Source of the DNA: Candidatus Magasanikiibacteriota bacterium | Lineage (GTDB): Bacteria > Patescibacteriota > Patescibacteriia > Magasanikbacterales > GWA2-37-8 | NCBI GenBank assembly: GCA_963840935.1 | Contig: CAWJAS010000001.1 | Location: 45,902-109,901, forward strand | Reading direction: 5' to 3' | DNA length: 64,000 bases | Shown: one piece after another, positions 10,837 to 53,672 of the stretch | Layout: the number at the start of each line of letters is the position of its first letter | Numbering within the stretch: the first letter of the stretch is position 1 | The notes under the pieces: generated by a model | Databases searched by the model: none | What the model was told of the DNA's origin: nothing | What the model saw: the letters and a program-made list of their open reading frames with translations, nothing else | Position numbers and translations under genes: made by a program

Positions 10837-10926
10837 CTTTTATATACTTGACAGATAGCGATAAATAGCGTTATTGTTGTTAGCGAACACTACACTGGCA
10901 ATTAATACCAAGGAGGAGGTATCTCG

Positions 10927-11268
10927 ATGGAAAAAAGGTTTCAGATTGGAGATGTGGTGATGTTCTTTGAGCGCGACGGAGAGATTTTTGCGCCTCCCGG
11001 TTTGGATGAAATTTCGGAAGAGGAACTTCGGTCCGCTCCTTGCGGAACGATTGTATCCAATTGCAACGGTCGTGTTACCATGCGAATGGAGGACAACGGA
11101 CGTTATTTCACTTTCGACGAAGAAAAGGCGGATAAAATCTGGTCCCTCAACGGCCCTTTGCGCGAAACCAAGGAAAAAAAGCGCGCTGATTCCGTGATCT
11201 TCGCTGGGTCATCCCTTCCGATAGACCCGGAGCAGGTTTTCAACATCCGCCCGATCGCCGAAGCCTAG
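10927..11268 (+). CDS. GC-rich orphan small protein (hypothetical)
   Basis: 113-aa ORF with AAGGAGGAGG RBS, upstream TTGACA element and downstream GC hairpin (GACCCCGC...GCGGGGTC); GC clearly above local background. Confidence 0.45.
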   Translation: MEKRFQIGDVVMFFERDGEIFAPPGLDEISEEELRSAPCGTIVSNCNGRVTMRMEDNGRYFTFDEEKADKIWSLNGPLRETKEKKRADSVIFAGSSLPIDPEQVFNIRPIAEA

Positions 11269-11399
11269 TCTCTCCGCACTTTATGACCCCGCTCTGGCGG
11301 GGTCAAATCATTTTTGCCGACCGCGTTCTAACACCTTGACAATTATTGAAAAAACAATTAATATATCAACGCTCTCAATATTTTTTCAAATAATACAAT

Positions 11400-12759: not shown

Positions 12760-13071
12760 ATGGAAAACAATTGCCCTGCAAACTGGCAAAGAGAATGCGA
12801 TGAACGAATGATTCATGGTGAGAAAAACTTTGCGGAATTCGCACGCAACCACAACTTCATTATCGAAGACATTTTGGTGCTGTTACCTTGCATACTATCG
12901 GCTTTAAAAAGAGCCAAAATAACAGATTTGAGGCAATTAATTTTAATGAGCGAAAAAGAAATAGCCAATCTTTGGCCATTGAATGATAGGCTATCATATA
13001 TATTGGCAAAGAGATTGCGATGTGTTGGTCTTGATCTTGGTCTTAAAGATATCCCAGATTTTCTGCGATAG
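12760..13071 (+). CDS. hypothetical small protein
   Basis: 103-aa ORF followed by hairpin terminator at about 13088-13115. Confidence 0.35.
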   Translation: MENNCPANWQRECDERMIHGEKNFAEFARNHNFIIEDILVLLPCILSALKRAKITDLRQLILMSEKEIANLWPLNDRLSYILAKRLRCVGLDLGLKDIPDFLR

Positions 13072-21238: not shown

Positions 21239-21382
21239 ACAAAATCACAACAAAACCGCTTCGGTCATCCGGGGCGGTTTTTTGTTTTCCTCGACAATTG
21301 CCATATTCAATGGGGTTGACAAAAATAGCTAAATATGTCATCCTACAGTGTTTTGTTCATTCAAAAAAGGAGAAGCTCCAAA

Positions 21383-21652
21383 ATGAATGTGGGTCAGGAT
21401 AAAATTAACGAAGTCGCTTTCAGTATTTTACGATTTTGTCACACCGCAATTCAGTTGATTCGCAAAGGGTCGCGGTCATACGAGGACGCGCTGGTACTGC
21501 TCGGCACTCTGTCCGAGTTCGTCGAAGACAAATCCACGGCCATCACAATTCCGCCACCCCCGCCGAACCAACCAAAACTGTCCGGACAATTCATTTTGGT
21601 GGAGCCGAGCATTCCTCACGACGGAGAAGACACCGTCTTGCTCAAAGATTGA
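21383..21652 (+). CDS. GC-rich orphan small protein (hypothetical); start chosen at RBS-supported ATG
   Basis: AAAAGGAGAAG RBS before ATG at 21383; TTGACA at about 21317; downstream GC hairpin at about 21680-21712. Confidence 0.4.
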   Translation: MNVGQDKINEVAFSILRFCHTAIQLIRKGSRSYEDALVLLGTLSEFVEDKSTAITIPPPPPNQPKLSGQFILVEPSIPHDGEDTVLLKD

Positions 21653-21779
21653 CACAGGCAATTGTTTCTCTTTTTTGCTCCATCCGCCTCCAAATATATT
21701 GGGGCGGTTTTTTTTATGCGATAATTGACTTTTTTCATTAATTACATTATTATTCGTAATATTTATTAATCATAAAAAT

Positions 21780-24039: not shown

Positions 24040-24258
24040 ATGATAATAAATGTGAGAGTCAGTCCACGCTCTTCAAAAAATGAAATAATACAAATGGCTC
24101 AAGGCGATTTAAAAATAAAAACAACCGCCGCTCCGGTTGACGGCGAAGCGAACACGGCGCTAATAAAAATTTTAAGCAAACATTTTAATGTGGCAAAAAG
24201 CCACATTAAAATAAAAAAAGGCCTAACCGGCCGAAATAAAATTGTGGAAATTATTTAG
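24040..24258 (+). CDS. DUF167/YggU family protein
   Basis: 72 aa; typical YggU pattern (VRVSPRSSKNEI...). Confidence 0.65.
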   Translation: MIINVRVSPRSSKNEIIQMAQGDLKIKTTAAPVDGEANTALIKILSKHFNVAKSHIKIKKGLTGRNKIVEII

Positions 24259-24518
24259 GGCATGTCCACTCCACCTTTGTTCCAAGGATTACAACGCAAA
24301 ATTCGCCAAATGGTTTTTGGCACTCCCACAAGGAGGCCTCTTTTTTTTATCACCTGATACCCATATTCAGAACAAGATGGATAAAAACGGCAATAGCCAT
24401 GTGTGAACAAACTTTTAAAAAATCCGTGGTCTGGCGACAATGTGCGCTGATATAATCTTATTAACCACAAAAACGGCAATCTAGGCAAAAATAAAATATA
24501 TGAAATGATTTTTGGCAT
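24255..24518 (-). CDS. yidD: membrane protein insertion efficiency factor YidD
   Basis: Conserved YCxxxPSCSEY motif; follows rnpA as expected. Confidence 0.8.
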   Translation of the reverse strand: MPKIISYILFLPRLPFLWLIRLYQRTLSPDHGFFKSLFTHGYCRFYPSCSEYGYQVIKKRGLLVGVPKTIWRILRCNPWNKGGVDMP

Positions 24519-25320: not shown

Positions 25321-26727
25321 ATGAATAACACTGAAATTTGGCAGGCTGTGCTTTCCGAACTGGAATTATCCATCTCAAAAGCTAATTTTATCACCTGGTT
25401 CAAAAATACCGGCATTGTTTCTGTTGAAGAAGGCCAGGTAATATTATGTGTGCCGAACACTTTTGCCCGAGCCTGGTTCGAAAAAAAGTACCACCACATG
25501 ATAATTAAGTCTCTTGAACGAATTCTCGGTAAACCAATCCGAAAATTAGACTACAAAATTGACAATATAAAGAACCTCATTGAACAAGCGGCCTGTGATT
25601 TGGAAAATTTAACCAATGCTTCTCTTGCAGAATCATACAATCCGCAAGGCGCGTCCTATAACTCCACACCTACACCACCGGCGAACCAAAGCAACGGCTT
25701 TACCTTGAACCCAAAATACGTTTTCGAAACATTTGTTGTTGGTTCTGGTTCCGAGCTTGCTTGCGCGGCTGCCAAAGCTGTCAGCGAAAAACCCGGTGAA
25801 GCATATAACCCTTTATTTATTTACGGAGGAGTCGGACTCGGCAAAACTCATTTAATTCAAGCGATTGGGAACCAAGTCAAAAAAAATAATCCAAACGCTT
25901 CCGTGCTTTATGTTAGCGCGGAAAAATTTTCCAATGATTTTATACACTCTGTAAAAGAAGGAACAGCAAAAGATTTCCAAAATCACTACAGAAATATTGA
26001 TTTACTTTTAATTGATGATATCCAATTTATTGCCGGCAAAGATCGCACGCAAGAATCATTTTTTCATACTTTTAATGAGCTTCATCAGCAAAACAAACAG
26101 ATTATTTTGACTTCCGACCGCCCGCCAAAAGCCATTCCCACGCTTGAAGACAGATTAAAATCACGGTTTGAGTGGGGTATGATAACTGACATTACCATGC
26201 CTGATTTTGAAACTCGTGTGGCAATTTTACAAAAAAAATGCGCGGAAAAGAAATTTAACTTGGAAGAAAAGGTTTTCCACACTATTGCCGCCACAATTCA
26301 ATCTAACATTCGCGAACTAGAAGGGTCTCTTAATAAAATAATCGCCTATCACCAATTAAAAAACATAAATCCCTCGGTAGAGTCCGTTAAATCGTTGCTT
26401 TCGTCAATCGAGGCCGCTTCAATGAAACAGTCATTAACCTCAAAACAAATAATTGAAACCGTTAGTTCTTTTTATAGTGTTCAGATTGATTTTATATTAA
26501 ATAAAAGTAGAGAAAAGAAAATATCTCATCCTCGTCAAATTATCATGTATTTAATGCGCGAGGAGCTCAAAATGTCTTATCCGAATATTGGCGGAGAACT
26601 CGGGGGCAGGGATCACACCACTGCCATGCATGCTTGCGAAAAAATTAATCGTGATGTTGATAATAACCCAAAATTAAAGCAAGAAATTGAATTAATAAAA
26701 CAACGATTGTATATAAATAACATATAA
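25321..26727 (+). CDS. dnaA: chromosomal replication initiator DnaA
   Basis: 468 aa; Walker A GGVGLGKTHL, AAA+ sensor motifs, C-terminal DNA-binding domain. Confidence 0.95.
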   Translation: MNNTEIWQAVLSELELSISKANFITWFKNTGIVSVEEGQVILCVPNTFARAWFEKKYHHMIIKSLERILGKPIRKLDYKIDNIKNLIEQAACDLENLTNASLAESYNPQGASYNSTPTPPANQSNGFTLNPKYVFETFVVGSGSELACAAAKAVSEKPGEAYNPLFIYGGVGLGKTHLIQAIGNQVKKNNPNASVLYVSAEKFSNDFIHSVKEGTAKDFQNHYRNIDLLLIDDIQFIAGKDRTQESFFHTFNELHQQNKQIILTSDRPPKAIPTLEDRLKSRFEWGMITDITMPDFETRVAILQKKCAEKKFNLEEKVFHTIAATIQSNIRELEGSLNKIIAYHQLKNINPSVESVKSLLSSIEAASMKQSLTSKQIIETVSSFYSVQIDFILNKSREKKISHPRQIIMYLMREELKMSYPNIGGELGGRDHTTAMHACEKINRDVDNNPKLKQEIELIKQRLYINNI

Positions 26728-26999: not shown

Positions 27000-28124
27000 A
27001 TGAAATTAACATGTACTAAAGAAAATTTATTAAATACCTTATCATTAGTGGCAAATTTGGCTTCAAAGAGCGTAAATTTGCCAATATTATCCAATATATT
27101 AATTAAGGCAGATGAACAAAAAGTCGAAATTATCGCCACAAATTTGGAATTAGCCATTGTGGCGAACCTTCGAGCCAAAGTGGAAGTGGCCGGGTCATTC
27201 ACGGTGCCGGCAAAAACACTAACGGAGTTTATTGGATTATTGAGCGATGAAAAAGTCGAACTTGAACAAATAGAAAATGAAATATTAATTTCTTGTGGCA
27301 AGAGTTCCACAAAAATAAAAGGAATGCCATCGGATGAGTATCCGGTAATCCCTCAAAATAGTGAGGGGCAGGGTTTTTTAATCTCCGCCGAGGATTTACG
27401 CAAAGGTTTAAACCAAGTAAATTTGGCTGCCGCCAGAAATGATATACGGCCGGAATTATCCGGAATTTTATTTTCTTTTAATCAAGACAATAATAAATTA
27501 TTAATAATCGCGGCCACAGACAGTTACAGATTGGCGGAAAAGAAAATAAAATTGATTCAAGGAAATGAAAATTTTCGAGTAATTGTTCCGGGAAGAACGG
27601 CTCATGAAATATCACATATATTGTCTTCGGCCAATGAACTTGAAGCGGAAAAAAATGCGAGAATTATTGTTAGTGAAAATCAAATAACTGTTAATTATAA
27701 TAACGTGCAAATGATTTCCCGTTTGGTTGAAGGTAATTATCCGGACTATACTCAAATTATTCCCACAAATTTTAAAACCGAAGCAAAATTCTCCGCGTCA
27801 AAAATGTCCAAAGAAATAAAAGCGGCCAGTTTGTTCACTACTGTTGGAGTTAACGCTGTCTCGCTTGATTTTGACACAAGCGTCGGAGCAATAAAAGTTT
27901 CATCAAATTCAACACAAACCGGTGAATATAAATCCGAAATTGAAGTATCGGCCAAAGGAGAAAACAATACAATATTATTAAATCATCGTTATTTGTTTGA
28001 TGGGTTGAATAATATTTCTTCAGATGAAGGTATTTTAAAAATTATTAATAGTGATAGTCCTTGTGTTTTGTCCGGCGCCAATGACGATAGTTATTTGTAT
28101 ATTATAATGCCGATCAGACAATAA
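27000..28124 (+). CDS. dnaN: DNA polymerase III beta sliding clamp
   Basis: 374-aa three-domain beta-clamp pattern immediately downstream of dnaA. Confidence 0.9.
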   Translation: MKLTCTKENLLNTLSLVANLASKSVNLPILSNILIKADEQKVEIIATNLELAIVANLRAKVEVAGSFTVPAKTLTEFIGLLSDEKVELEQIENEILISCGKSSTKIKGMPSDEYPVIPQNSEGQGFLISAEDLRKGLNQVNLAAARNDIRPELSGILFSFNQDNNKLLIIAATDSYRLAEKKIKLIQGNENFRVIVPGRTAHEISHILSSANELEAEKNARIIVSENQITVNYNNVQMISRLVEGNYPDYTQIIPTNFKTEAKFSASKMSKEIKAASLFTTVGVNAVSLDFDTSVGAIKVSSNSTQTGEYKSEIEVSAKGENNTILLNHRYLFDGLNNISSDEGILKIINSDSPCVLSGANDDSYLYIIMPIRQ

Positions 28125-37288: not shown

Positions 37289-38194
37289 TTATTCGAATTT
37301 AAAGCTATTAACCATTTCTTGGTCATAGATATTTTGATAGTTTTCGTCTGCAACGAAAGTAGATGCTTGCCCGAGGTCCCATGAAATTGCCTTATTTTTT
37401 GCTGGGTAATATTTTAGAACCGTCATATAGTTTAATGGACATTCTGTATCTTCCAAATCTTTCCCGTCTCCCAGAATAGATACATCAAAAACACCAGATT
37501 GGTCCGAGGAATTTTTTTCGCCCAATTTGCATCCACTGCCGTAACGTTCCTTTATAAAATTTTCCAACTGCGTGTCATTATCGATGTCTCTAATAACAAA
37601 CTTCCAACTTTGTTGCTGAAAATATTTGTCATCCTTAAGACGGGCAAGTGAGTTCGCGACTTTTTCACATCCAGAATAATAATGAATATTATCTCTTATT
37701 GTTTCTCCGGTAAGTTCATAGAAATATTCACTGGAAATATAGATATTTTCATCTTCAAAAATTTTTACCGGGACAATTCCGTTTTTTGGGCGGTAGGAGT
37801 CGGTTTTCCATTCACACGCGGACCCATATCCATGGTACATTTTTTTAGGAACTTTAATTGAAAAGCCATATTTATGATTGGTGTATTTATTCCATGTTTG
37901 ATCGACTGAATTAATGGTCGAAGCAGTATCGGTTGTAGTTGGCTCAGTGTTAGTTGCGGGAGAATTTGGTTCATTTTTTGGGGTTTCTGATTGTTCCAGT
38001 AATGTAATTTGGTTTTCTAATGAAGTGATTTGTTTTTGTAAAATTTGTTCCGCAGATTTTCGATTTGAATTTTGCCATGCATATGCTCCACCACCCACAA
38101 TTAAGGCAGTTAAAACAATGGCAATAATAATGACCCAAATATTTTTCGAGTGTTGAGTTTGCGCATTTGGTTGTGGAAAATTTTGTTCGCTCAT
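37289..38194 (-). CDS. hypothetical membrane-anchored protein with coiled-coil
   Basis: 301 aa; N-terminal TM; no recognisable motif. Confidence 0.45.
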   Translation of the reverse strand: MSEQNFPQPNAQTQHSKNIWVIIIAIVLTALIVGGGAYAWQNSNRKSAEQILQKQITSLENQITLLEQSETPKNEPNSPATNTEPTTTDTASTINSVDQTWNKYTNHKYGFSIKVPKKMYHGYGSACEWKTDSYRPKNGIVPVKIFEDENIYISSEYFYELTGETIRDNIHYYSGCEKVANSLARLKDDKYFQQQSWKFVIRDIDNDTQLENFIKERYGSGCKLGEKNSSDQSGVFDVSILGDGKDLEDTECPLNYMTVLKYYPAKNKAISWDLGQASTFVADENYQNIYDQEMVNSFKFE

Positions 38195-38388
38195 ATTTAT
38201 TTTTAGTTAATAAAATTATTTTGAAATTTTTCGCTGTCTCATTCTATTTTTAATGTATCGTTCAACGGCCTCTTTTGTAGTCAGCCAGTCCCTACCTTCT
38301 TTGTGTGCTTCCAGTTTTCCTTGTCGGGCAAGTAAGTTTAGATATTTTGCGGAGTGGGCGCGTGTATGAGAAGTTTCGCCAACTTTCT

Positions 38389-38763
38389 TTATTGATCAAT
38401 CACTTTGTCTGTTTTCAAAATATCTCGCTTATCTTCACCCGTCGTCACCTGCTTGATGACTATAAATTTCACAATTTTGTCAGTATGATTAATAAAGGTG
38501 TGCGGTGTGTTTTCTGTTTCAATCAAATCACCAGCTTTGACAATCTGACTTTCGATTTTATCGCCGACTTTCCATTCAGCAGTCAGTTCGCCTTCAATAA
38601 TGTACAAACTTTCCAAAATCTTTTCATGATGATGCCAAGTTTGGGTTGTACCCCCTACTTGTTCATTATAGTGTAGCTCATATTCATCACGAAGATAATA
38701 GCGAACGTTTAACCCTTCCGGTTTTGAAACAGACAAAGATTCTTCACGTTTAACTATTTTCAT
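38389..38763 (-). CDS. cupin domain protein
   Basis: HHHEKILESLYIIEGEL...PHTFIN two-His cupin motifs. Confidence 0.65.
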   Translation of the reverse strand: MKIVKREESLSVSKPEGLNVRYYLRDEYELHYNEQVGGTTQTWHHHEKILESLYIIEGELTAEWKVGDKIESQIVKAGDLIETENTPHTFINHTDKIVKFIVIKQVTTGEDKRDILKTDKVIDQ

Positions 38764-38851
38764 AGTATTAATCTTATTTTTTAGAATAGCTTTTTGGCAA
38801 TTTTACATAAGGGGCGCGCTTATCCAAATTATTTTTTGCGGTTGTAACCTT

Positions 38852-38886
38852 GACAGAATAGCCGTTATTTGCTATATTGAAATGTC
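38852..38886 (+). promoter_or_regulatory. sigma70-like promoter (TTGACA, 17 bp spacer, TATATT)
   Basis: Consensus hexamers upstream of the 38975 ORF; GAAGGAGG RBS at about 38955. Confidence 0.5.
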
Positions 38887-38974
38887 AATAGTTGAGAAAT
38901 CGTCAAACCAAAAGAGTGGTTTTTCGCTGTTGCGAGGGTCTGCTCTTTTACAAATTTTGAAGGAGGAACATAAG

Positions 38975-39223
38975 ATGGGGAACAAAAGTATTTGCCGATC
39001 AGTAATGTTTGGCGCTATCATAGGATTATCGCTAGGGCTATTTCATTTCTGGCCATTCACACTGGTATTTATGCTCCTCGGAGGGATTGTTGCCGTGGTG
39101 ATCAGTGTAATAACTGGTCATGCAATAAACTTTCTACTTGTGCTAGTTATCGAGTATCTGCTCATGGTGTCGATCATGTTCATTGCGTTGTATGTACACG
39201 GCCGACGAAATGATAAAGGATGA
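38975..39223 (+). CDS. small hypothetical membrane protein (three TM helices)
   Basis: RBS-supported ATG; hydrophobic 82-aa product. Confidence 0.4.
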   Translation: MGNKSICRSVMFGAIIGLSLGLFHFWPFTLVFMLLGGIVAVVISVITGHAINFLLVLVIEYLLMVSIMFIALYVHGRRNDKG

Positions 39224-39309
39224 AAAGAGCAGATCCGGTTCAAACGCAAGGCGTTGGCTATATAGCTGACGCTTTTTTCTTATGGGCAAAATATAATTTG
39301 AAAGAAAAT

Positions 39310-39410
39310 GTCGCCTAACGTCAGGGATGTGAGAAGTTGCGACCAACGGGAGCAATTTGGGTGAAGAAGTCTGCAAGACTTCGTAACCTCATATCCCTTG
39401 TTATATCCCC
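39310..39410. repeat. attC-like imperfect-palindrome element E0
   Basis: Left arm GCCTAACGTCAGGGATGTGAGAAGTT; right arm CTCATATCCCTTGTTATAT; same family as E1-E5. Confidence 0.5.
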
Positions 39411-39504
39411 CATGGGGCTAAAATTTAGTGCAACGTCCCGAAGGGAAATTTCAGAGTTTGAGTCGTGACATTTATTTGTTAAGGGCAAAACTTCTACATT
39501 ACTA

Positions 39505-40050
39505 TTATTTCGATTCTAAATATTTTTTCAGTTTAGCAAATGGTTTGATTGCTAAGTATGTTTTTTGGTCATCATCTTCATCAAGTGACGCTCTGGTAAT
39601 AGCATAACCTTCCGGAATAAAAATCTTATCCCACCCATAACCATTATTTCCTGAAGGTTTCTCTGCAATTTCACCGCCTAAACTACCTTCAAACAATTCT
39701 AAATCTTTACCATCATAATAACCAAAAACACATCTTGCCGTTGCTTTTCTTGTTAATCCATTGCCAATCATTGAGCAGATTACCTCAAACGGAATCTTTT
39801 CTGCAAAGAATTTTATGAAAGGACCAGGCAATCCACCAAGAGCGTCAAATTCTAAAGCAACATCTTCAACAATAACCGGTTTCTTTATTAGCTCGTAAGC
39901 TTGTTTTACTTTATGTTCCGCAATTTCGTTCAAATCGGTAGATTGGATTTCATCTAAGTTCAGTTTGACATGATTTACAGTATAACCAAGATACTTGGAT
40001 AGATAATCCGCTTTATTTTGATTACCTGTGATAAAAGTTACATTTGCCAT
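39505..40050 (-). CDS. non-canonical purine NTP pyrophosphatase (Ham1/RdgB family)
   Basis: MANVTFITGNQNK... and conserved Ham1 blocks. Confidence 0.8.
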   Translation of the reverse strand: MANVTFITGNQNKADYLSKYLGYTVNHVKLNLDEIQSTDLNEIAEHKVKQAYELIKKPVIVEDVALEFDALGGLPGPFIKFFAEKIPFEVICSMIGNGLTRKATARCVFGYYDGKDLELFEGSLGGEIAEKPSGNNGYGWDKIFIPEGYAITRASLDEDDDQKTYLAIKPFAKLKKYLESK

Positions 40051-40074
40051 AATAAATGAATGAAAAAAAGCATA

Positions 40075-40210
40075 GTTTTAAAAAGTTCTGCCCATCCTTT
40101 TTGCCACGATTCAAATTTGGGTGAAGAAAATTTGCATTCTTTAGATTTATTTTTAGTGCAAAATTTCTGAACCGGATATGCCGTGTTAGGCGATGTAAAA
40201 AATAACCCCC
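40075..40210. repeat. attC-like element E1
   Basis: Right end GAACCGGATATGCCGTGTTAGGCGATGTAAAAAATAACCCCC abuts the GNAT stop codon; GTTAGGC matches the GTTRRRY core. Confidence 0.5.
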
Positions 40211-40701
40211 TAAATTTTTAATTCTAAATGTATGGCGTTGTATTTTGTGTCCGTTTCTGATTGTTCAATGTTAGTTATTTGGTAACCTCTTGTCAAAAGC
40301 ACCCTAAGCATTTCTGTCGAAACATTATAGACTTTTACGGTTACGGATTTATACTCATTAGCTCGAGCAAATTGTTCATTATTTTCAAAAAGCTTTGTGG
40401 CGATTCCTTTATTTCGGTGTTCTTTTAAAACACCCATAACCCAAATATATAAAGAGCCGTCTCTATTATAAGAAATTGAATCGCCAACAACTTGGCCATC
40501 AACCTTCGCTATGAAAATTTTTGGTACTAATACTTTTAATTTTTCTTGATAATGTTCTAATGAATAAGGATCCTGTTCATACATCCCTTTGAAAATTTTC
40601 AAGTTTGCGAGAACAATTTGCTCGAGTTGATCGTTATTTCCTTCAGATATTTCAAATTGGTTGGGTTGTTCCATATTCGGACGCGGTAATACGTTTTTCA
40701 T
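40210..40701 (-). CDS. GNAT family N-acetyltransferase
   Basis: Acetyl-CoA-binding motif (VLKEHRNKGIATKLF). Confidence 0.7.
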   Translation of the reverse strand: MKNVLPRPNMEQPNQFEISEGNNDQLEQIVLANLKIFKGMYEQDPYSLEHYQEKLKVLVPKIFIAKVDGQVVGDSISYNRDGSLYIWVMGVLKEHRNKGIATKLFENNEQFARANEYKSVTVKVYNVSTEMLRVLLTRGYQITNIEQSETDTKYNAIHLELKI

Positions 40702-40859
40702 AAAAATTTAGGGGGTTATTTTTTTATTTTGCATAACGTTTACGAGTATCCGAAGTTTTTCTGAAGCGGAGCGAAAAAAAATTTTGGGTGAAGGCTTTTG
40801 TATAAAAGCCGTAACCGGATACTCGTTGTTAGCTGATGTATTTTGATGACTTTTATTTA
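40702..40859. repeat. attC-like element E2
   Basis: Arms AACGTTTACGAGTATCCGAAG and CCGGATACTCGTTGTTAGC; centre TTCTGAAGCGGAGCG...TTTTGGGTGAAGG shared with E5. Confidence 0.55.
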
Positions 40860-41942
40860 TTATAATAATTTTTGAGCAAAAACAAAAACCATTCCATCAT
40901 ATCCAACTTTTTCTTTATCACTTCCTTCTAAAACAGACATTTCAATAACTTTAAATTTATTTTGTTCAAGATATTGAGCAATATCTTCTTCATTAATTTT
41001 TGTGGCTGGCATTTTTTCTTCTCCTACTTGATACCACTCAGCATTTCTTATCGCGGATAGTGAAAGATATCCGCTGGGTTTAATCATATCAGTTATATTT
41101 TTCATTCCTTGTTCCCATGTCGCTCGATCTGACGTTGCTGATTCAATTGTAAAATTTGAAGTTAGTAATTCCGTGCTTGCTTCTCTGCCTGAAGCTGTAA
41201 CTGCGTCATATTGTTCATCGGTAGGCAATTCGAGACCTTCTACAAAAACATTGCCATGGGTTACTGATCCAACCACGGCCCTAAGGTGCTTTTTCATATC
41301 TTCTATATCTTCGCTTTCAAGTAGTTTTAAAACATTCTGCGCATGTGTTTTTGTTTTTTCATCATCTAATTCGGTTTGTTTTTTAAGAATAGACATGTAT
41401 TTCTCATCATTTTTTAAAGTACGTTGCATTAATGAAAAATATGCATCCCAATTATAGCTATCTTCATCTTGGTCAAGCCAGCGTTTTACCTCTTCCCGAT
41501 TTTGTTCTAAGAATTCTGAATGGGTTATACTTCCAGCCTCTAGCGATACTGGTATATGCTGGTATATTGTTGGTCCACCACCGACATCTAATACTTTTAT
41601 ATTGTCTTGGGGAAAAGCTTCAAGCAAATTGCGAGCCACTTTTTTTTGAAAATCAAAAATTACTATATTTTCAACTGTTTCATGAGGTAAATTTGTTTTT
41701 TCTACAATATCCTCAATATTTACATGTCCGTCATTTTTATCTAACTCCTTTTTAACTTCCTCCATGGCCCAAGAGAATTTTTCTAAATCAATCCGATCAG
41801 GATAGTATGTTGCAATATAATCTTTAGCACCAAATTTTTCCTTAAAAATGGCGGATTCTTCTTCTTTTATTGATGGTTGAGGTTGCTCCGCACCTTTTGA
41901 AGATTCTGATTTATTAAATTGTTTTATTTTTTCTAAATTCAT
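40860..41942 (-). CDS. putative class I SAM-dependent methyltransferase
   Basis: Motif I VLDVGGGPTIY; otherwise unassigned. Confidence 0.45.
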   Translation of the reverse strand: MNLEKIKQFNKSESSKGAEQPQPSIKEEESAIFKEKFGAKDYIATYYPDRIDLEKFSWAMEEVKKELDKNDGHVNIEDIVEKTNLPHETVENIVIFDFQKKVARNLLEAFPQDNIKVLDVGGGPTIYQHIPVSLEAGSITHSEFLEQNREEVKRWLDQDEDSYNWDAYFSLMQRTLKNDEKYMSILKKQTELDDEKTKTHAQNVLKLLESEDIEDMKKHLRAVVGSVTHGNVFVEGLELPTDEQYDAVTASGREASTELLTSNFTIESATSDRATWEQGMKNITDMIKPSGYLSLSAIRNAEWYQVGEEKMPATKINEEDIAQYLEQNKFKVIEMSVLEGSDKEKVGYDGMVFVFAQKLL

Positions 41943-42121
41943 AAAGTCACCAAAATATTTCAGCTAACGTATCCGAATATGAGAAGTTTTTGCCCGCTTC
42001 CTTATCATATTTCAAAAGAAGAAAAGGGCAAAAATTTGGGTAAAAAATGAAATTCAAGTCCATTGTATTATAAAGAGAATTTCATTTTTTCCTCATATTC
42101 GGTGTTGTGCGATGTAAATTT
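41943..42121. repeat. attC-like element E3
   Basis: Arms CTAACGTATCCGAATATGAG and CTCATATTCGGTGTTGTGCGATGTAAA; inner inverted repeat TTTTTGCCC / GGGCAAAAA. Confidence 0.55.
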
Positions 42122-42430
42122 TTATTTTTCTTTGTTAATCCACTTTTTATCAATCGCTTCTTCTAAATCAATACCAAGTAAATGCGCATTAACTATGGCC
42201 ATTCCAACAACATCAGCTAGCTCCTTCGCCAATTCCTTTTTCGAAACTTCTTCGGGAACGTGTTTTTCTGGACGACTCTTTTTTCGGTGAATTAAAACAG
42301 CTTGAGTAAGTTCACCAACTTCCTCATATAATTTTAACAAAGCAAAATCTTCATCAATTTTGACATTGTATTTTTGGCCATAGTTAATCGCATTTTCTAC
42401 GACCCTTTTTTGTAGTTCTTTGAAATCCAT
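42122..42430 (-). CDS. MazG-like nucleotide pyrophosphohydrolase domain protein
   Basis: EExGE motif (EEVGELTQAV) and AIVNAHLLGIDLEEAI; start trimmed to MDFKEL so the ORF does not overlap E4. Confidence 0.55.
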   Translation of the reverse strand: MDFKELQKRVVENAINYGQKYNVKIDEDFALLKLYEEVGELTQAVLIHRKKSRPEKHVPEEVSKKELAKELADVVGMAIVNAHLLGIDLEEAIDKKWINKEK

Positions 42431-42625
42431 AAAAGAAAAATTAAAATTTATTTCGCACAACGTTTGTGTATAGCAGAAGTTTTTGCCCGCTTCCTTATTA
42501 TATTTTTTAAAGATAGAAAAGGGCAAAAATTTGGATGAAGGAAATTGCGCTACCTTATTTTATTGTAAAAATGCGCAATTTCTTGAATCTGCTATACGCT
42601 GTTGTACGATGTTGGCTTTCCATTT
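42431..42625. repeat. attC-like element E4
   Basis: Arms ACAACGTTTGTGTATAGCAGAAG and CTGCTATACGCTGTTGTACGATGTTGGC; same TTTTTGCCCGCTTCCTTAT centre as E3. Confidence 0.55.
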
Positions 42626-42726
42626 TATTCCATTATTTGGGCAGTTTTTGATCGCAATCATTGACAGGTGGGGCGCGATCGTGTTAGATTAGTCTGTCGC
42701 CCATAACACAAAGGAGGTAGCGGCAC

Positions 42727-43020
42727 ATGACACACGAAGAAGTCGAACAGCTGGTAGAACGTGTGAAAAGCAGCGGATCAGCGGTTATCGAAGCCATGAC
42801 CGAGGAGGAGCTTGCGGAGCTGGAGGCACATCTTCAGACATGTGATGAGGAAAGGTGCATGAAGGTTCGGGAGGACGAAGCGCAGACTCGAGGGGGATTC
42901 GGTGCGTACCTTCGGGGAGAACACTCCTACGGTGGTACGTCCCACAGGGACTTGGGGGTGCACTTCCCTCGAGTCTGGGGTGAGGTAGGTTTCGTCAACT
43001 CTGTCGTCTCTGGCAAGTAG
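42727..43020 (+). CDS. GC-rich orphan small protein, in inverted orientation relative to neighbouring cassettes, with its own promoter
   Basis: TTGACA, 17 bp spacer, TTAGAT promoter at about 42660-42694; AAAGGAGG RBS; flanked by a 26-bp inverted repeat (42601-42626 / 43122-43150). Confidence 0.45.
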   Translation: MTHEEVEQLVERVKSSGSAVIEAMTEEELAELEAHLQTCDEERCMKVREDEAQTRGGFGAYLRGEHSYGGTSHRDLGVHFPRVWGEVGFVNSVVSGK

Positions 43021-43117
43021 AGCGCCCCGCCGCCCCTCGCTCACACGACCCGCTTGGCTATATGCCTCGTGGGTCGCTTTCATTTCAGGAGAGAAAACTG
43101 CCCAAATAATTGAATTG

Positions 43118-43280
43118 AAAAAGAAAAATGGAAAGCCAATTTCGTACAACGTTAGGCATATCCGAAGTTTTTCTGAAGCGTAGCGGAGGAAAAATTTGGG
43201 AGAGAAAATTTTGCTTTCCTTAATTTATTATAAAGTGCAAAATTTTTGAACCGGATATGCCTTGTTATGTGATGTAAAAT
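43118..43280. repeat. attC-like element E5
   Basis: Arms ACAACGTTAGGCATATCCGAAG and GAACCGGATATGCCTTGTTATGTGATGTAAAA; 10-bp perfect arm complementarity (GGCATATCCG / CGGATATGCC). Confidence 0.55.
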
Positions 43281-43329
43281 TCTTTCTTTTTTCTTTTTTT
43301 AAATTTGCTTTTATTCTAAATGATAAATA

Positions 43330-43385
43330 AGTTTTTTGTTTTTGATTTTGGGCAGAGGGGTAAGGGGTGAATGCCCAAAATCAAA
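43330..43385. terminator. strong bidirectional hairpin (TTTGATTTTGGGCA...TGCCCAAAATCAAA)
   Basis: 14-bp perfect stem. Confidence 0.55.
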
Positions 43386-43396
43386 AACTCCTTATT

Positions 43397-44206
43397 TTAA
43401 ATATTTATTTGGTTATTTTTAACAATAATAGCTCCTGATTTTTCAATTATTGATTTTACAGCGAGAATCTTATCTTTAAATTCTTCAGAATTTTTAGTCA
43501 AACAATTATTACAGTCCGCACTCCATTTAATAATCATTAATTTTGCAGCTCCTTTGATAATGTCGTATAAATCTTCAGGTGAAACAAATTTAGCTTTAAA
43601 TTTTGTTGCTTTTTCTAGTTTTCTTGATTTTTCATCAAGCGCTGAATATGATAGTCCTAATCCTTGAGCTACGGAAAAAAAGTGCGTTAAAGAATTTCTT
43701 AATTTTCTAAGATCGTCAGCCGTAATATGTTTTAATCTCTCTTGATTATTTTTGCACCACCCGTTTTCTGAATTTAAACAAAATTCTTTTATAAATTTTT
43801 TCACATTTTCTTGATTCATCGCTTTTTTGATAATTTCTTTTTCATCGGAAGTCTTATTTTCGTAAGCTATGTTCAGGCAAAATAGAGTTTCTAGATTGGC
43901 AAACAAAACTATCATTTCTGAGCGAATAGGTCTATCTATTTTTAATTTATCGGCAATAGTGGCAGGCGGTTCTGAAAAAGTAAATTTAAAATCAATTGAA
44001 TTTTCTTTAAGTTTACCAGCAAGCACTTCAACAAGTTCTATCGTCTCCAGATGCTGTTTTCTAATTGATTCTAATTTTTTATCGAAATTTATTAAATCTT
44101 CAATTTCTTTTTCGATTTCCTGTAAAAAAAATATGACTTCTCGTAAATTTGGAGAAATTAAAACTTTATCGCCATCAAAAATAAAATGTGTGCTTTGATT
44201 TTGCAT
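43397..44206 (-). CDS. hypothetical protein with Rx4H (HEPN-like) motif
   Basis: RKLRNSLTHFF fits the HEPN Rx4-6H signature; adjacent to the R-M module; weak. Confidence 0.35.
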   Translation of the reverse strand: MQNQSTHFIFDGDKVLISPNLREVIFFLQEIEKEIEDLINFDKKLESIRKQHLETIELVEVLAGKLKENSIDFKFTFSEPPATIADKLKIDRPIRSEMIVLFANLETLFCLNIAYENKTSDEKEIIKKAMNQENVKKFIKEFCLNSENGWCKNNQERLKHITADDLRKLRNSLTHFFSVAQGLGLSYSALDEKSRKLEKATKFKAKFVSPEDLYDIIKGAAKLMIIKWSADCNNCLTKNSEEFKDKILAVKSIIEKSGAIIVKNNQINI

Positions 44207-44218
44207 ATTTCAATATTA

Positions 44219-44983
44219 TTATTTCAATCTACGGATAGCCAAGTCAACATATCTTTTTTCTTTTTCAATCCCAATCCAATTTCTGCCAAGTGCTTTTGCA
44301 ACAAAAGCGGTTGTACCGCTTCCCAAAAAAGGATCTAGAACAATGTCGTCTTTTTTGCTTGCTGCTAATATCACTTGCTGAATTAGTTTAAGTGGTTTTT
44401 GAGTTGGGTGTGCTTTTATGCCATTTTCATCTTTTAGTCTTTCATTTCCTCTGCATAAACCAAAGACCCAATCCGTATCTTTCATTTGCTTTCCGCCGTT
44501 CATTATTTTCATTTGCTCATAGTTAAAAGTATAGCCCTTGCATGTTTTATCTTTCACTGCCCAAACCAGTGTTTCGTGATTATTTGTAAATCTTCGCCCG
44601 TTAAGATTTGGCAGAGCGTCAGTTTTAACCCAAATCACATCATTCAAAAACCAAATTCCTAGATCCTGCATAATTGTCCCGACACGAAAAATATTGTGAT
44701 ACATTCCAATAACCCACATTGTTCCTGTTGGTTTTAATATCCTTTGGCTTTCTTTGAGCCAGTTTTTTGTAAAATTATCATAGTCCTCGTAGCTTTCAAA
44801 TTTATCCCATTCATCATCAACTGGAATAACCTCAGTGCCATTAGCTCTTTTTAATCTTTTGCCTTTTGGGAGTTGTAAAAAATATGGCGGATCTGCAAAA
44901 ATCAAATCAATAGAGTTGTCTGGAAATTCTTTTAATATTTCTAGACAATCGCCATGAATTACTTTGTTTATATATTTTTGCAT
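44219..44983 (-). CDS. beta-class N6-adenine/N4-cytosine DNA methyltransferase (DpnA-like)
   Basis: N-terminal IHGDCLEILKEFPDNSIDLIFADPPY (motif IV DPPY near the N-terminus). Confidence 0.8.
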   Translation of the reverse strand: MQKYINKVIHGDCLEILKEFPDNSIDLIFADPPYFLQLPKGKRLKRANGTEVIPVDDEWDKFESYEDYDNFTKNWLKESQRILKPTGTMWVIGMYHNIFRVGTIMQDLGIWFLNDVIWVKTDALPNLNGRRFTNNHETLVWAVKDKTCKGYTFNYEQMKIMNGGKQMKDTDWVFGLCRGNERLKDENGIKAHPTQKPLKLIQQVILAASKKDDIVLDPFLGSGTTAFVAKALGRNWIGIEKEKRYVDLAIRRLK

Positions 44984-44987
44984 CTAA

Positions 44988-46109: not shown

Positions 46110-46112
46110 AAA

Positions 46113-50083: not shown

Positions 50084-53047
50084 ATGGGGAGGGAGAAATT
50101 ATTTATTTCGGCCGTTATTTTAATTACGGGCGTTTTTTTATTTTACGCGGACGCGCGGGCAGAAGAAGTGTGCGTCACATCAACCGGTTGGGGCAGTGTT
50201 CGGCTCAATGAAATCAGTTCTTATTCATCAAGTAATGATTGGGTTGAGCTGTACAATATTTTGGATGTCTGCGTTAATTTGGATGGTTTGAAATTGTGGG
50301 ACAGCGGAGTGTCGTCTGCCATGCGAGTGCTCACGGGTGATATTTTTGCCCACGGGTTTTTGAATGTTAGCGTGAGTAATCGACTGGGTCGTGATGCTGA
50401 TAGTGTTGTTTTGAAAAATGAGGATAATGAATTGGATCGTTTTGATTATGGCACTTCGGAATTTCCGGCTCCGGAAGAAAATGAAGTTTGGGCGCGTGAA
50501 ATTGATGGACTAGGAGATTGGAAAATTACTATTGAATCCACCGAAGGGTCGGCGAATTCGATCGTGACCCCGATTATTGATCCGACTTCTACTCCACCCA
50601 TCGACCCACCAACAACTACTCCTCCGGTCGATCCGCCGACTTCCACTCCGCCTACGAGTACGCCCCCTATTGACCCTCCCACTACCACGCCGACTTCAAC
50701 ACCACCTGTCGACCCGCCAACAACCACTCCAACATCTTCGCTGGTGATTGATTGGGCGATGATTAAAATAAATGAATTTGTATCAAATCCGACATCGGAC
50801 AATGAGTGGGTGGAATTATATAATTTATCTAGTGACGATACTGATTTGACAGGCGCCGTAATTTGCGACAATCGCGAAACCGGATGCAAAAGCATTGCCG
50901 GAACGATTCTGGCAAACAGCTGGTTTTATTTTGACTTGCTTTCAACGAGTTTTTTGAATAATGACGGCGATAGTGTGATTTTAAAAAATTCAGAGTACGA
51001 AATAATAGACCGCGTTGATTATGATTCAGTTGGCGCGCCAAAAAAAGGGGAATCATTGGCAAGAACAGTTGATGGTATCGGTGAATTTGCCCGGACCACG
51101 CAATTAACGCAAGGCACGGCCAATGTGATTGTGCCACCGGTGGTTGTGGGTTCCGGCGGTTCTTCAAATCAATCGGTAATAAATATTCCTGAAGACGAAA
51201 CGGCAACAACCACCTGTGAATCGCAAAAAGTATATATAAACGAACTTTATCCGAACCCATTCGGGTCTGATTCGAATGACGAGTTTATTGAAATAATAAA
51301 TTTATCTTCCTCAACAATTAATTTGGACGGATGGAAGCTGGCCGACACGGCGCAAAGTTTTGTTTTATCCGGTGTAATTAATCCCGGTCAAATTTTATTT
51401 TGGAAAAGAGCGGAAACAAAAATCGCTCTGAATAACACGGCCAAAGAAACAATTAAATTATTTGATTCAAAAAAATGCGAAATTGATTCTGTTTCATATG
51501 ATAAGGCGGATGAGGGCGAAAGTTTATTGCGCGACGAGGCGGGGGAGTATTTTTGGACAAATCGACCAACACCGGGTGAAGAAAATGTTTATATTCAAAA
51601 AGATAACGGAATTGTTTGGAAAGTAAGATACCCGTTGAATGGCATAGTCGGGGAAAATGTTGTTTTTGACACCGAAGACAGCGCCGACGACCGTGGAGGC
51701 GAAATAATTTTTGATTGGGATTTTGGAGATAACTCCACTTCAAGTGGGGCGATTGTTTCACATGTTTTTTCTCGCTCCGGCGAATACCAAATATTGTTGT
51801 TTGCTTCAAGCACAAATGGCAGTCGTGGCTCAAAAACAATGAGCATAAATATCAGCGCACCGATGGTTGGTGTTAATAATATTATTATTAACGAAATTTT
51901 TGCCAATCCTTTGGGTACTGACGAAAAGGAGTTTATTGAAATTTTTAATTCAGGTGAAAACGATGAGGATTTGAGCGGATGGATAATTCGATCTGGCAGT
52001 GGCGCGCCTTTTGCTTTGCCCGAAGGCGCCATGATTGGAGCGAAAAATTATTTAGTTTTTTACAAAACCGCGACAAAAATTTCCATTAATAACACTTCAG
52101 ACACTATTTCTTTGATAAATGGAGATAACCAAATAGTTGATATGGTTCGAATAGGCAAGAGTGCGACTGATGAAAGCTACGCGTTTGTGAACGGAGAGTG
52201 GAAATGGAGCAGTCCGACACCGGGTGGCGAGAACATTATTGAAAATTTGATAGTTGCGAATGTACCAATTTCAAGCGCGAAAAAAATCACCACTTATCCG
52301 TTTGTGAATATAATAACAGCTCGTCAAATGGATAAAGACGACGGAGTAAAAACAAAGGGCGTGGTTACGGTTTTACCGCAAATGTTTGGTAAACAATATT
52401 TTTACATTTTTGATGGGATAAGTGGTATTCAAATTTATCAATATCAAGGCAAATTTCCAGCGTTAAAGATTGGCGATTTGGTGGAAGTCAAAGGAATTTT
52501 ATCTGAAGCGAGTGGGATAAAAAGAATAAAGTTAAAAAATGAAAAAGAAGTTGATATATTGGAGATAGAAATGAATTTGCCGCCGATAAATCTTCAGAGT
52601 GGAGAAATAAGTGAAGAGTATTTGGGCGCGCTCGTAAAAGTTGAGGGCGAGATTACGTCCAAAAAAACGAATTTTATTTATATTGATGACGGACAGGGTG
52701 AAGTAAAAATATATTTTAAACAAAACGCCAAAATTGATAAAAGTGTTTTGAAAGAAGGCGGACGTGCCAGTGTGGTTGGTATTTTGGAAATTAACGCCGG
52801 TGAAATAACGATTTTACCGCGTTTGCCTGAAGATGTGGTTGTGGCCGTAGATAATGAATTAATGATGCCAATTGAAAATAATGGTGCGGAAGAAATAAGT
52901 TCAGGCAAAGAAACCGCGGAAAAATATTTAACTGCCACCGCCGGTGGTTTGACCGCTTTGATTTTGGGTTTTTTGAGTAGGGCGCGAGGGATGGCTCTGC
53001 TTGGGTTAATAAAAAAAGTTGCCGTTAAATTAATTACTCGAGTATAA
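50084..53047 (+). CDS. large secreted protein with repeated lamin-tail-domain (LTD) modules, Pro/Thr linker, PKD-like domain and C-terminal membrane anchor
   Basis: Four modules with the NE(I/L)xxNP...EWVELYN...LxGWKL pattern; TPPxDPPTTTP linker; C-terminal hydrophobic helix. Confidence 0.65.
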   Translation: MGREKLFISAVILITGVFLFYADARAEEVCVTSTGWGSVRLNEISSYSSSNDWVELYNILDVCVNLDGLKLWDSGVSSAMRVLTGDIFAHGFLNVSVSNRLGRDADSVVLKNEDNELDRFDYGTSEFPAPEENEVWAREIDGLGDWKITIESTEGSANSIVTPIIDPTSTPPIDPPTTTPPVDPPTSTPPTSTPPIDPPTTTPTSTPPVDPPTTTPTSSLVIDWAMIKINEFVSNPTSDNEWVELYNLSSDDTDLTGAVICDNRETGCKSIAGTILANSWFYFDLLSTSFLNNDGDSVILKNSEYEIIDRVDYDSVGAPKKGESLARTVDGIGEFARTTQLTQGTANVIVPPVVVGSGGSSNQSVINIPEDETATTTCESQKVYINELYPNPFGSDSNDEFIEIINLSSSTINLDGWKLADTAQSFVLSGVINPGQILFWKRAETKIALNNTAKETIKLFDSKKCEIDSVSYDKADEGESLLRDEAGEYFWTNRPTPGEENVYIQKDNGIVWKVRYPLNGIVGENVVFDTEDSADDRGGEIIFDWDFGDNSTSSGAIVSHVFSRSGEYQILLFASSTNGSRGSKTMSINISAPMVGVNNIIINEIFANPLGTDEKEFIEIFNSGENDEDLSGWIIRSGSGAPFALPEGAMIGAKNYLVFYKTATKISINNTSDTISLINGDNQIVDMVRIGKSATDESYAFVNGEWKWSSPTPGGENIIENLIVANVPISSAKKITTYPFVNIITARQMDKDDGVKTKGVVTVLPQMFGKQYFYIFDGISGIQIYQYQGKFPALKIGDLVEVKGILSEASGIKRIKLKNEKEVDILEIEMNLPPINLQSGEISEEYLGALVKVEGEITSKKTNFIYIDDGQGEVKIYFKQNAKIDKSVLKEGGRASVVGILEINAGEITILPRLPEDVVVAVDNELMMPIENNGAEEISSGKETAEKYLTATAGGLTALILGFLSRARGMALLGLIKKVAVKLITRV

Positions 53048-53085
53048 AAAAGCCGCCGATTCGGAAAACGGCGGCAATACTCAAC
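53040..53085. terminator. bidirectional terminator (GCCGCCGATTCGGAAAACGGCGGC)
   Basis: Serves the convergent 50084 gene and the 53109-53534 gene. Confidence 0.6.
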
Positions 53086-53108: not shown

Positions 53109-53534
53109 CTAGCTCGCGGAAGCGAAACGGGCGCGCTCGTCGGCGCCGCAGATGCGCATGCGCAGGGGGCTGTCGTCCGGAATCCGGTCGAGCAGGCAGG
53201 TGAGCACGTTCACGGGTGCCTTGTGAACGAACTGGCGGAAGCTGAGCTTCCAGCGGATTCCGCGGGTGCCCTTGTACTCGACGAGGCCCGGGATGAGGTT
53301 GGCGGCCTTCTTCTTGTCCGCCTTCTTGGCGGCGCCCGTCATGGTGACCGGGTACACGAAGTCCCGGAAGAATGCCGTTTCCGACACCACGATTTCCACG
53401 CCCACATCGTCGATGACGATTTTGGGCTCGCTCGTGGGCAGAAGCATCTTCGTGAAGGCGCACGTCATCCGTGGGTTGGCCGTCGGCCCCTGTCTGCGGC
53501 TTTTCTGTTCGGGCCCGTTTGCTCGGTGCTTCAT
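53109..53534 (-). CDS. GC-rich orphan protein (hypothetical)
   Basis: AAAGGAGAGACGA RBS before ATG; promoter TTGACA, 17 bp spacer, TATTAT inside a palindromic region; other frames give low-complexity Arg/Gly/Pro products. Confidence 0.45.
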   Translation of the reverse strand: MKHRANGPEQKSRRQGPTANPRMTCAFTKMLLPTSEPKIVIDDVGVEIVVSETAFFRDFVYPVTMTGAAKKADKKKAANLIPGLVEYKGTRGIRWKLSFRQFVHKAPVNVLTCLLDRIPDDSPLRMRICGADERARFASAS

Positions 53535-53567
53535 TCGTCTCTCCTTTGTTGAGGTTTGAACCAAAAA

Positions 53568-53640
53568 GAACGCTGTCAAACTGACAACAAATAATATCAT
53601 ATTTAATACTATTTGTCAATTGATGACAGCGTTCTTATGT
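53568..53640 (-). promoter_or_regulatory. promoter embedded between perfect 11-bp inverted repeats GAACGCTGTCA / TGACAGCGTTC
   Basis: TTGACA and TATTAT hexamers lie inside the 48-bp segment between the inverted repeats; candidate operator. Confidence 0.45.
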
Positions 53641-53672
53641 TTTTATTACTTCGCCACTCCTTACTTCATTCG

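Follow-up and report, generated by a model that had tools for sequence, protein, structure and literature searches.

Four GC-rich small genes in an AT-rich Patescibacteria chromosome: probable lineage-specific add-on genes

Introduction

For an AT-rich, reduced bacterial genome, small genes that are far richer in GC than their surroundings raise the question of where they came from and why their composition persists. Here, this question is posed by a 64,000-nucleotide stretch of contig CAWJAS010000001.1 (the window) from a Candidatus Magasanikiibacteriota bacterium, which contains four short GC-rich open reading frames (ORFs) designated A, B, C, and D (Table 1). The first-pass annotation, which was made by reading the sequence, described them as orphans, each with its own promoter, strong Shine-Dalgarno (SD) sequence, and terminator, and interpreted them as foreign protein genes, perhaps borne on cassettes. 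All four ORFs are present where they had been placed; D lies on the minus strand, which had not been stated.

The four ORFs are compositionally atypical, lineage-specific add-on genes, a known kind; the persistent GC-richness of A and B is unusual. With a probability of roughly 0.6, they represent four unrelated, moron-like add-on protein genes, of which A and B are old single gains, D is an ameliorating import, and C is a cassette orphan. The analysis shows the coding status, restricted distribution, synteny, evolutionary rates, and codon usage shift; we infer that the genes came from elsewhere, what their products do biochemically, and why A and B have stayed GC-rich. All four ORFs are on a single contig of 770,905 bp. 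PolA of the host is 71% identical to that of a Candidatus Magasanikiibacteriota metagenome-assembled genome (MAG), and the remaining near matches belong to Patescibacteria.

Base composition and expression signals of the four ORFs

The computed GC contents of the ORFs (0.504 to 0.638) clearly exceed that of the whole window (0.386), which bears out the contrast that had been judged by eye. The GC content at third codon positions (GC3) reaches 0.58 to 0.87, about 3 to 7 standard deviations above the 35 genes of at least 200 amino acids (aa) in a greedy gene map (GC, 0.379 ± 0.043; GC3, 0.346 ± 0.070), as expected from the claimed GC3-rich codons. Other small genes are not shifted, with a GC3 of 0.38 in the gene for ribosomal protein S20 (rpsT), 0.378 in the 103-aa ORF at 12760-13071, and 0.383 in the ORF at 24255-24518. 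In two-fold pyrimidine codons, the fraction of C is 0.62, 0.71, 0.81, and 0.96 in A to D, compared with 0.28 in the background and 0.30 in rpsT; in two-fold purine codons, the fraction of G is 0.33 to 0.76 in the four ORFs, compared with 0.17 in the background. The ORFs also show a GC1>GC2<GC3 periodicity.

The GC shift is located at synonymous sites, and amino acid composition was therefore ruled out as its source. Translational selection was ruled out as the source of the C-ending codons, since the highly expressed rpsT shows background codon usage; expression-type codon bias is thus not the cause of the shift. When the four ORFs were compared with one another, no similarity was detected at the protein or DNA level, in agreement with the annotation.

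Strong SD sequences precede all four ORFs. In a promoter scan, the sites upstream of A and C scored 10/12 and that of D scored 11/12 with an upstream TG, whereas B reached only 9/12. The terminators of A and B are canonical, and the hairpin loops of C and D exceed the limit of the scanner. Thus, the view that each ORF carries its own complete set of signals held for the SD sequences in all cases and for the promoters of A, C, and D, while the promoter of B and the hairpin of C are weak.

Coding capacity and database searches

The four ORFs are best read as protein genes, because substitutions between orthologues of A and D are in excess at third codon positions, A, B, and D show in-frame indels and a ratio of nonsynonymous to synonymous substitution rates (dN/dS) of 0.13 to 0.35, and Rfam gives no match. 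The SD sequence and ATG are conserved among relatives for A and D. When the whole window was scanned with Rfam 15 at gathering thresholds, nine tRNAs were the only hits, with no RNase P, tmRNA, signal recognition particle (SRP), 6S, or other family, which agrees with the earlier exclusion of RNase P, tmRNA, and SRP RNA at the ORFs. Permissive scans of the four regions (E up to 1) returned nothing under an E value of 0.1. The folding z-scores against shuffled sequences were -0.8 for A, +0.5 for B, -2.4 for C, and -3.0 for D. RNAalifold applied to three D sequences supported the terminator only, with a covariation term of +1.8, i.e., none.

As the annotation had anticipated, no family was recognized: Pfam, NCBIfam, PHROGs, and PADLOC gave no match above threshold. 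Sequence-profile searches of the PDB with the ORFs, a search of genome contigs with the A profile, metagenome scans with D and A, viral scans with all four ORFs, and tblastn of D against phages and plasmids likewise gave no match. Literature searches for integrons or for GC-rich genes in Patescibacteria yielded no relevant reports. The description as orphans holds for C, which has no homologue among 5.8 billion proteins, but not for A, B, and D, whose orthologues are confined to close relatives and occur there at the same chromosomal position.

ORFs A and B occupy conserved chromosomal slots

In close relatives, A is always found between rmuC and rpsT. Its four homologues are 66 to 73% identical; orthologues differ at 23, 10, and 43 first, second, and third codon positions, with a dN/dS of 0.16 to 0.27. 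The 90 nt upstream of A are 82% conserved in two related loci (L001 and L002), despite the near-saturated synonymous sites of the neighbors. The A orthologues have a GC content of 47% in loci of 36 to 37% GC, and GC3 remains at 0.48 to 0.58 across three lineages at a synonymous divergence (dS) of about 0.8 to 1.0. The polarized third-position flux is balanced, with 20 weak-to-strong (W->S) and 24 strong-to-weak (S->W) changes. The annotation had placed inverted GTTGTTAGCGAAC / GTTCTAAC motifs around A; no inverted repeat was detected there, and the motifs are not conserved in the orthologous loci. An attC palindrome (R''-L''...L'-R', with RYYYAAC / GTTRRRY ends) is absent at the A locus.

B has one orthologue (locus L073), which is 75 to 76% identical and lies in the same slot between the H+-pyrophosphatase gene (hppA) and tig. 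The dN/dS is 0.13 at a dS of 1.08, and the orthologue has a GC content of 49% in a locus of 37.5% GC. The promoter stretch TTGACAAAAATAGC.AAATATGTCAT is conserved in L073, which also has a hairpin and T run at the position equivalent to the B terminator. By eye, the B protein looks helical in its N-terminal half, after which come a PPPPP tract and a short tail. Three further HMMER matches of B were repetitive proteins and were judged spurious.

Neighboring proteins are 88 to 97% identical where A is 68 to 73% and B is 75% identical. The dS of A and B equals that of the neighbors (about 0.8 to 1.5), and their dN/dS is 3 to 10 times higher.

The same slots were followed into more distant genomes. 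Those that carry genes in the slots (L005, L006, and L012) have PolA proteins 66 to 71% identical. The rmuC-rpsT slot contains an 88-aa gene in L005 (GC3, 0.75, compared with 0.465 in long genes) and a 94-aa gene in L006 (GC3, 0.56, compared with 0.33), each with its own SD sequence and terminator hairpin, and a 63-aa gene of ordinary GC in L012; it is bare, with 71 to 118 nt, in L010, L011, L013, and L014. The hppA-tig slot contains GC-rich genes of 160 aa in L005 and 162 aa in L012 and a 146-aa gene of ordinary GC in L006, and is geneless in L007, L010, L011, and L014.

For the B slot, the B protein matches that of L006 (E = 2e-4, a score reached by 0 of 100 shuffles), and the L005 protein matches those of L012 (E = 1e-3) and L006 (E = 3e-3); L005 and L012 are tied to B by chaining. 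For the A slot, the L005 and L006 proteins are homologous (E = 3e-7). The A profile aligns with the L005-L006 profile at an E value of 1.1e-3 and an hhalign probability of 20%, and pairwise BLAST does not rise above shuffles; homology of the A family to these slot genes is therefore no more than suggestive. Because the slots are filled in closer relatives and empty in more distant ones, the simplest reading is a single acquisition each of A and B, close to the root of the clade defined by a PolA identity of at least 66%, and vertical descent with fast divergence thereafter.

The annotation had accepted that homologues revealing conserved genes of unusual composition would tell against its view. 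By these comparisons, A, B, and (as described below) D are such genes, in a clade-restricted form, and not fresh foreign DNA.

GC-rich outlier genes, both small and large, were also observed in related MAGs, with a GC content of 0.54 to 0.62 and GC3 of up to 0.80 in genomes of 41 to 43% GC (L010, 13707-13997 and 17278-18183; L014, 13718-14002 and 17306-18205; L019, 6315-7040 and 14858-16138). GC-rich add-on genes thus seem to be recurrent in this group.

Predicted structure and variable tail of the A protein

Compared with a close strain (dS of about 0.04), A shows seven replacements and one synonymous change, whereas its neighbors show 4 and 19 (Fisher's exact test, P = 0.0009). Six of the seven replacements fall within residues 79 to 105, and positions 79, 80, 83, and 86 differ in a third strain as well. 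The tail appears to be under far weaker constraint than the neighbors or under diversifying selection; the eight changes do not separate the latter from neutrality of the tail. As a target of a diversity-generating retroelement, the tail was rejected: the window has no second copy of the A DNA, and the substitutions are not adenine specific.

Structure prediction, a check proposed in the annotation, was carried out for A and D with AlphaFold2 (AF2) and gave a barrel-like model for A and an unmatched one for D, with no significant fold match for either. The A model is a five-stranded small barrel at residues ~10 to 73, with a predicted local distance difference test (pLDDT) score of 62 overall and 70 to 82 in the barrel, followed by the disordered, variable tail (residues 79 to 105) and the conserved C-terminal motif PIDPExVxNIRPIAEA. 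The top Foldseek matches are KOW, PWWP, SH3, and Tudor domains (best E = 0.02). Thus, A is predicted to be an SH3/KOW/Tudor-like small beta-barrel with a hypervariable tail, and the acidic protein would act in binding or as an adaptor.

ORF D is a GC-rich gene that appears to be ameliorating

D has three syntenic homologues with 79 to 81% identity and is convergent with a gene for a large LTD/PKD protein. Differences at codon positions 1, 2, and 3 number 22, 17, and 36, and the dN/dS is 0.22 to 0.35 (0.07 against a close strain). The dS of D is 0.42 to 0.57, compared with 1.2 to 1.7 in its neighbors. Three genomes are nearly identical in the promoter, 5' untranslated region (5' UTR), and first 37 coding nucleotides of D, and synonymous sites are unusually conserved in the 5' two-thirds. 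The low dS and the invariant 5' region fit either recent exchange among relatives or constraint at the nucleotide level.

At third positions, S->W changes outnumber W->S changes by 30 to 8 in three genomes and by 6 to 1 against the close strain, and the per-site rates in both directions are similar to those of the neighbors in the close-strain comparison. Because the S->W excess arises at neighbor-like per-site rates, D looks like an import that is shedding GC at the normal rates of the genome.

Pairing in the D terminator is kept by compensatory changes in L003 and L004. The core of the inverted repeat around the D promoter (GAACGC/GCGTTC) is conserved in relatives. No second perfect copy of this palindrome occurs in the window, and a single match with two mismatches is within chance expectation; a regulon sharing it was therefore ruled out within the window. 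As a guess, the D protein may bind the palindrome around its own promoter (autoregulation). The AF2 model of D has a disordered N terminus followed by a low-confidence alpha/beta domain (pLDDT, 59) and yielded no usable fold match.

Synteny with four related contigs stops at ~53636-53642, the upstream edge of the D unit. Beyond this edge, L078 and L003 have a gene of ~146 aa with ordinary GC and a hydrophobic N terminus, and the present genome has a tRNA-linked repeat and a tRNA cluster.

ORF C lies within an integron-like array

One of the ORFs had been placed in a cassette array, and C was indeed found inside an array of units with attC-like boundaries. C and the neighboring units are flanked by attC-like palindromes with ...CACAAC/GTTGTAC... 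ends, which are one position off the RYYYAAC/GTTRRRY consensus. Judged by these palindromes, C would be an orphan borne on an attC-type cassette. It is the only GC-rich unit of the array and has its own promoter. As a candidate family, zf-HC2 (PF13490) was rejected for C, since the score was 16.6 bits against a cutoff of 22.2 and the protein has HxxxCxxxxC instead of HxxxCxxC.

The integron-like array extends over ~38000-47200, and its units are parted by attC-like palindromes of ~110 to 140 nt, e.g., at 42455-42607 and 43143-43270. Each unit lies between inverted repeats of 24 to 49 nt starting with GTTRYRYGATG. Among the cargo are genes for cupin, Ham1, GNAT, methyltransferase, and MazG-like proteins and a four-gene unit at 43264-47130. 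No intI or other tyrosine recombinase was detected when ten array and flanking ORFs were compared with Pfam; a serine recombinase located 17 kb from the array was the sole recombinase found within the window, and an integrase may lie beyond the window.

Favored explanation and its alternatives

In the favored explanation, each gene would be a self-contained unit with a sigma-70-type promoter, a strong SD sequence, and an intrinsic terminator, inserted between conserved genes of a Magasanikiibacteriota-like chromosome or, for C, inside an attC-type cassette. A and B would have been acquired once near the base of a family-level clade and inherited vertically thereafter under purifying selection, with protein evolution 3 to 10 times faster than that of the neighbors. 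In the A product, a small acidic barrel of the SH3/KOW/Tudor type would be joined through a variable linker to a conserved peptide at the C terminus. D would be a later GC-rich import in the process of ameliorating, and its basic product might bind the palindrome around its own promoter. Several points weigh against this explanation. The viral, phage, plasmid, and metagenome scans revealed no donor lineage for any of these genes, and the case for foreign origin is therefore one of composition. The A gene and the slot genes of L005 and L006 may be independent insertions into the same slot. As old imports, A and B should have ameliorated by now, and they have not. Confidence in the structure models is low (pLDDT, 62 and 59), and no fold match is significant.

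A merely inherited trace of foreign composition should have vanished by the divergence of L005 and L006, and the lasting GC of A and B may stem from selection, biased conversion, or repeated replacement from a GC-rich gene pool. An explanation in which selection or GC-biased gene conversion actively keeps GC high, and the atypical codon usage is functional instead of left over, was judged rather unlikely. Possible roles would be translation control by rare codons, mRNA stability, or avoidance of AU-specific cleavage. The balanced flux of A and its steady GC3 over three lineages argue for such maintenance, as do slot genes standing 10 to 29 points above genome GC3 in five of six lineages for the A slot and four of five for the B slot. 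AT-biased mutation predicts that fast, weakly constrained genes should be the most AT-rich, but these are the most GC-rich, and the genome retains the CNN/GNN-anticodon tRNAs Ala-CGC, Ala-GGC, Arg-CCT, and Ser-CGA. However, D is not maintained, with per-site S->W and W->S rates equal to those of its neighbors, the L012 gene in the A slot and the L006 gene in the B slot are not GC-rich, the highly expressed rpsT keeps background codon usage, the A and B mRNAs are no more structured than shuffles, and parsimony polarization near saturation is biased towards 50:50. It is likewise rather unlikely that the genes for these fast-evolving, clade-restricted small proteins are actively kept 10 to 25 GC points above the genome in lineages with long-saturated synonymous sites, with GC as a selected feature or an effect of conversion hot spots.

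The view of the first-pass annotation, extended to recent acquisition of all four genes, perhaps as integron cassettes, is less probable still. Foreign-like codon usage in all four ORFs, the position of C amid typical cassette cargo, the low dS and falling GC of D, and the presence of another GC-rich mobile gene, the large serine recombinase, are consistent with it. For A and B, it is refuted by synteny and a dS identical to that of the neighbors; moreover, no attC-like palindrome lies beside A, no integrase was detected among the array ORFs scanned, and no donor homologues appeared in any collection searched. What stands of that view is that the four are compositional outliers, that C is probably cassette borne, and that D resembles an import. 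Least probable is that GC-rich structured noncoding or dual-function RNA genes carry the ORFs by chance, in the manner of the GC-rich RNA islands known from AT-rich genomes. RNAs do account for the other GC peaks of the window (a structured repeat linked to tRNAs, besides the nine tRNAs themselves), the D and C transcripts are more stably folded than shuffled sequences, and the synonymous sites in the 5' two-thirds of D are conserved. Against this, no Rfam match was obtained even at an E value of up to 1, A and B have fold z-scores near 0, covariation in D is limited to the terminator, and the substitution pattern across codon positions, in-frame indels, dN/dS below 1, correct spacing of strong SD sequences from the ATG, and codon periodicity are those of protein genes.

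Comparison with known systems

A moron is a small gene with its own promoter and terminator and a deviant GC content, recognizable as additional DNA where related genomes have two adjoining genes (PMC3594210). A and B resemble phage morons, such as HK97 gene 15, in promoter and terminator, GC content, and extra DNA. In contrast to morons, the four genes have no phage or prophage setting (the flanks are rmuC, rpsT, holA, polA, hppA, and tig), and the viral, phage, and PHROG searches gave no relatives; A and B have persisted by vertical descent throughout a family-level clade.

In the model of Lawrence and Ochman, ORFans of atypical composition are reportedly horizontally acquired genes under amelioration. 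Acquired bacterial ORFans are usually more AT-rich than the host. The four ORFs share with ameliorating ORFans a narrow range, the lack of a family, atypical codons, and fast evolution, and D shows directional GC decay; they differ in being GC-richer than the host and, for A and B, in lacking the predicted decay.

C resembles integron cassettes in CALIN arrays (attC clusters without an integrase) in lying between attC-like palindromes with ...AAC / GTT... ends next to typical cargo. Unlike such cassettes, it has its own promoter, the inverted repeats reach 26 to 49 nt into the cassette, and the window showed no intI; attC-like sites are absent from A, B, and D. The A protein resembles SH3, KOW, Tudor, and PWWP barrels in the predicted fold of residues 10 to 73 and in the N-terminal strand motif F-x-[IV]-G-D-V-V. 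It differs from these families in having no sequence-family match, a best Foldseek E value of 0.02, and an acidic character unlike that of ribosomal KOW proteins.

Implications

In terms of annotation, the four GC islands do not represent overlooked RNase P, tmRNA, or SRP genes. The products of A, B, and D should be listed as small proteins conserved within the clade, and C should be listed as cargo of a cassette. Patescibacteria are ultra-small episymbionts, and their lineage-specific small proteins are prime candidates for roles in host interaction or conflict. A, in which a variable linker connects a conserved barrel to a conserved C-terminal peptide, is a concrete candidate for such roles.

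The most weakly constrained genes of an AT-rich reduced genome are here the most GC-rich and remain so across deep divergence, which is the opposite of what mutation pressure predicts. Thus, A and B offer a small, tractable case for the study of selection or biased conversion acting on base composition. If their GC is maintained, the GC-rich composition would not be a fading mark of import but could serve translational or mRNA stability control of accessory or host-interaction proteins, or could mark recombination hot spots with GC-biased conversion.

Table 1. Positions of the four ORFs, their putative control signals, and the tRNA-linked repeats in the window
Feature	Position	Strand	Remarks
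Promoter-like site of A	10848..10877	+	TTGACA-18-TATTGT; scan score 10/12
SD sequence of A	10910..10919	+	AAGGAGGAGG, 7 nt ahead of ATG; AAGGAGG invariant in L001, L002
ORF A	10927..11268	+	113 aa; GC 0.509, GC3 0.58
Intrinsic terminator of A	11284..11305	+	9-bp stem then T run; conserved in L001, L002
Probable promoter of B	21316..21344	+	TTGACA-17-CATCCT, TG upstream, weak -10; by reading, scan silent
SD sequence of B	21366-21374	+	AAAGGAGAA
ORF B	21383..21652	+	89 aa; GC 0.504, GC3 0.58
Intrinsic terminator of B	21684..21716	+	Scan gives 21688-21704
Left arm of inverted repeat bounding C cassette	42601..42648	.	Long inverted repeat; begins GTTGTACGATG
Promoter-like site of C	42661..42690	+	TTGACA-18-TAGATT, TG; score 10/12
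SD sequence of C	42710-42718	+	AAAGGAGGT
ORF C	42727..43020	+	97 aa, acidic, HxxxCxxxxC stretch; GC 0.565, GC3 0.61
Weak hairpin of C	43047-43076		
Right arm of inverted repeat bounding C cassette	43094..43150	.	Ends CGTACAAC; then attC-like palindrome to ~43270
Terminator hairpin of D	53046..53075	-	GCCGCCG-loop-CGGCGGC and T run; common to convergent LTD/PKD gene
ORF D	53109..53534	-	141 aa, basic; GC 0.638, GC3 0.87
5' control region of D	53540..53636	-	SD sequence, promoter, inverted repeat
Promoter of D	53619-53591	-	TTGACA-17-TATTAT; score 11/12, upstream TG
Inverted repeat around D promoter	53566-53578 / 53624-53636		Perfect, 13 nt, AAGAACGCTGTCA
tRNA-linked repeat copies	405-589; 8930-9287 (two copies); 53668-53859; 60402-60548		

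Other features of the window

A GC-rich repeat family of 130 to 190 nt lies directly 3' of the tRNA genes for Ala-GGC, Arg-CCT (two copies), Pro-TGG, and Ser-TGA. Four of the five copies are followed by a 17- to 22-nt duplicate of the 3' end of the respective tRNA, which the distal Arg-CCT copy lacks. The conserved core is GGATTYGAACGCCGGARCGATGTTTGGCGAGCTTG..GGCGAG.CAAACCGCGA..GGCGGTGGC, and pairing in an upstream hairpin (GCGA-NNNN...NNNN-TCGC) is preserved from copy to copy by compensatory changes. The repeat has no Rfam match, and the exact 17-nt core is absent from the related loci searched. It may represent a miniature mobile element that targets tRNAs or a set of att-site remnants.

The large serine recombinase gene (60699-62087, minus strand; Resolvase, Recombinase, and Zn_ribbon_recom domains) has a GC content of ~0.49 and a GC3 of 0.55 and adjoins two tRNA-Ser genes. 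It lies between perfect 80-nt inverted repeats (60649-60728 / 62141-62220) in a region spanning 60649-62410. Of three more perfect inverted segments, two pair the recombinase region with 62337-62386 and the third lies within 62101-62410. The region may be invertible or mobile, or may reflect an assembly artifact.

The window probably spans the replication origin region; dnaA (25321-26727, by synteny with a DnaA-annotated gene in L073) is followed by an ORF (27000-28124) at the position of dnaN in L073. A tandem repeat at 54095-54260, between tRNA-Phe and an AT-rich spacer, consists of about five copies of a ~34-nt unit (TACGCCGAGTAAACCTCGGCTTTTCCATACAT).

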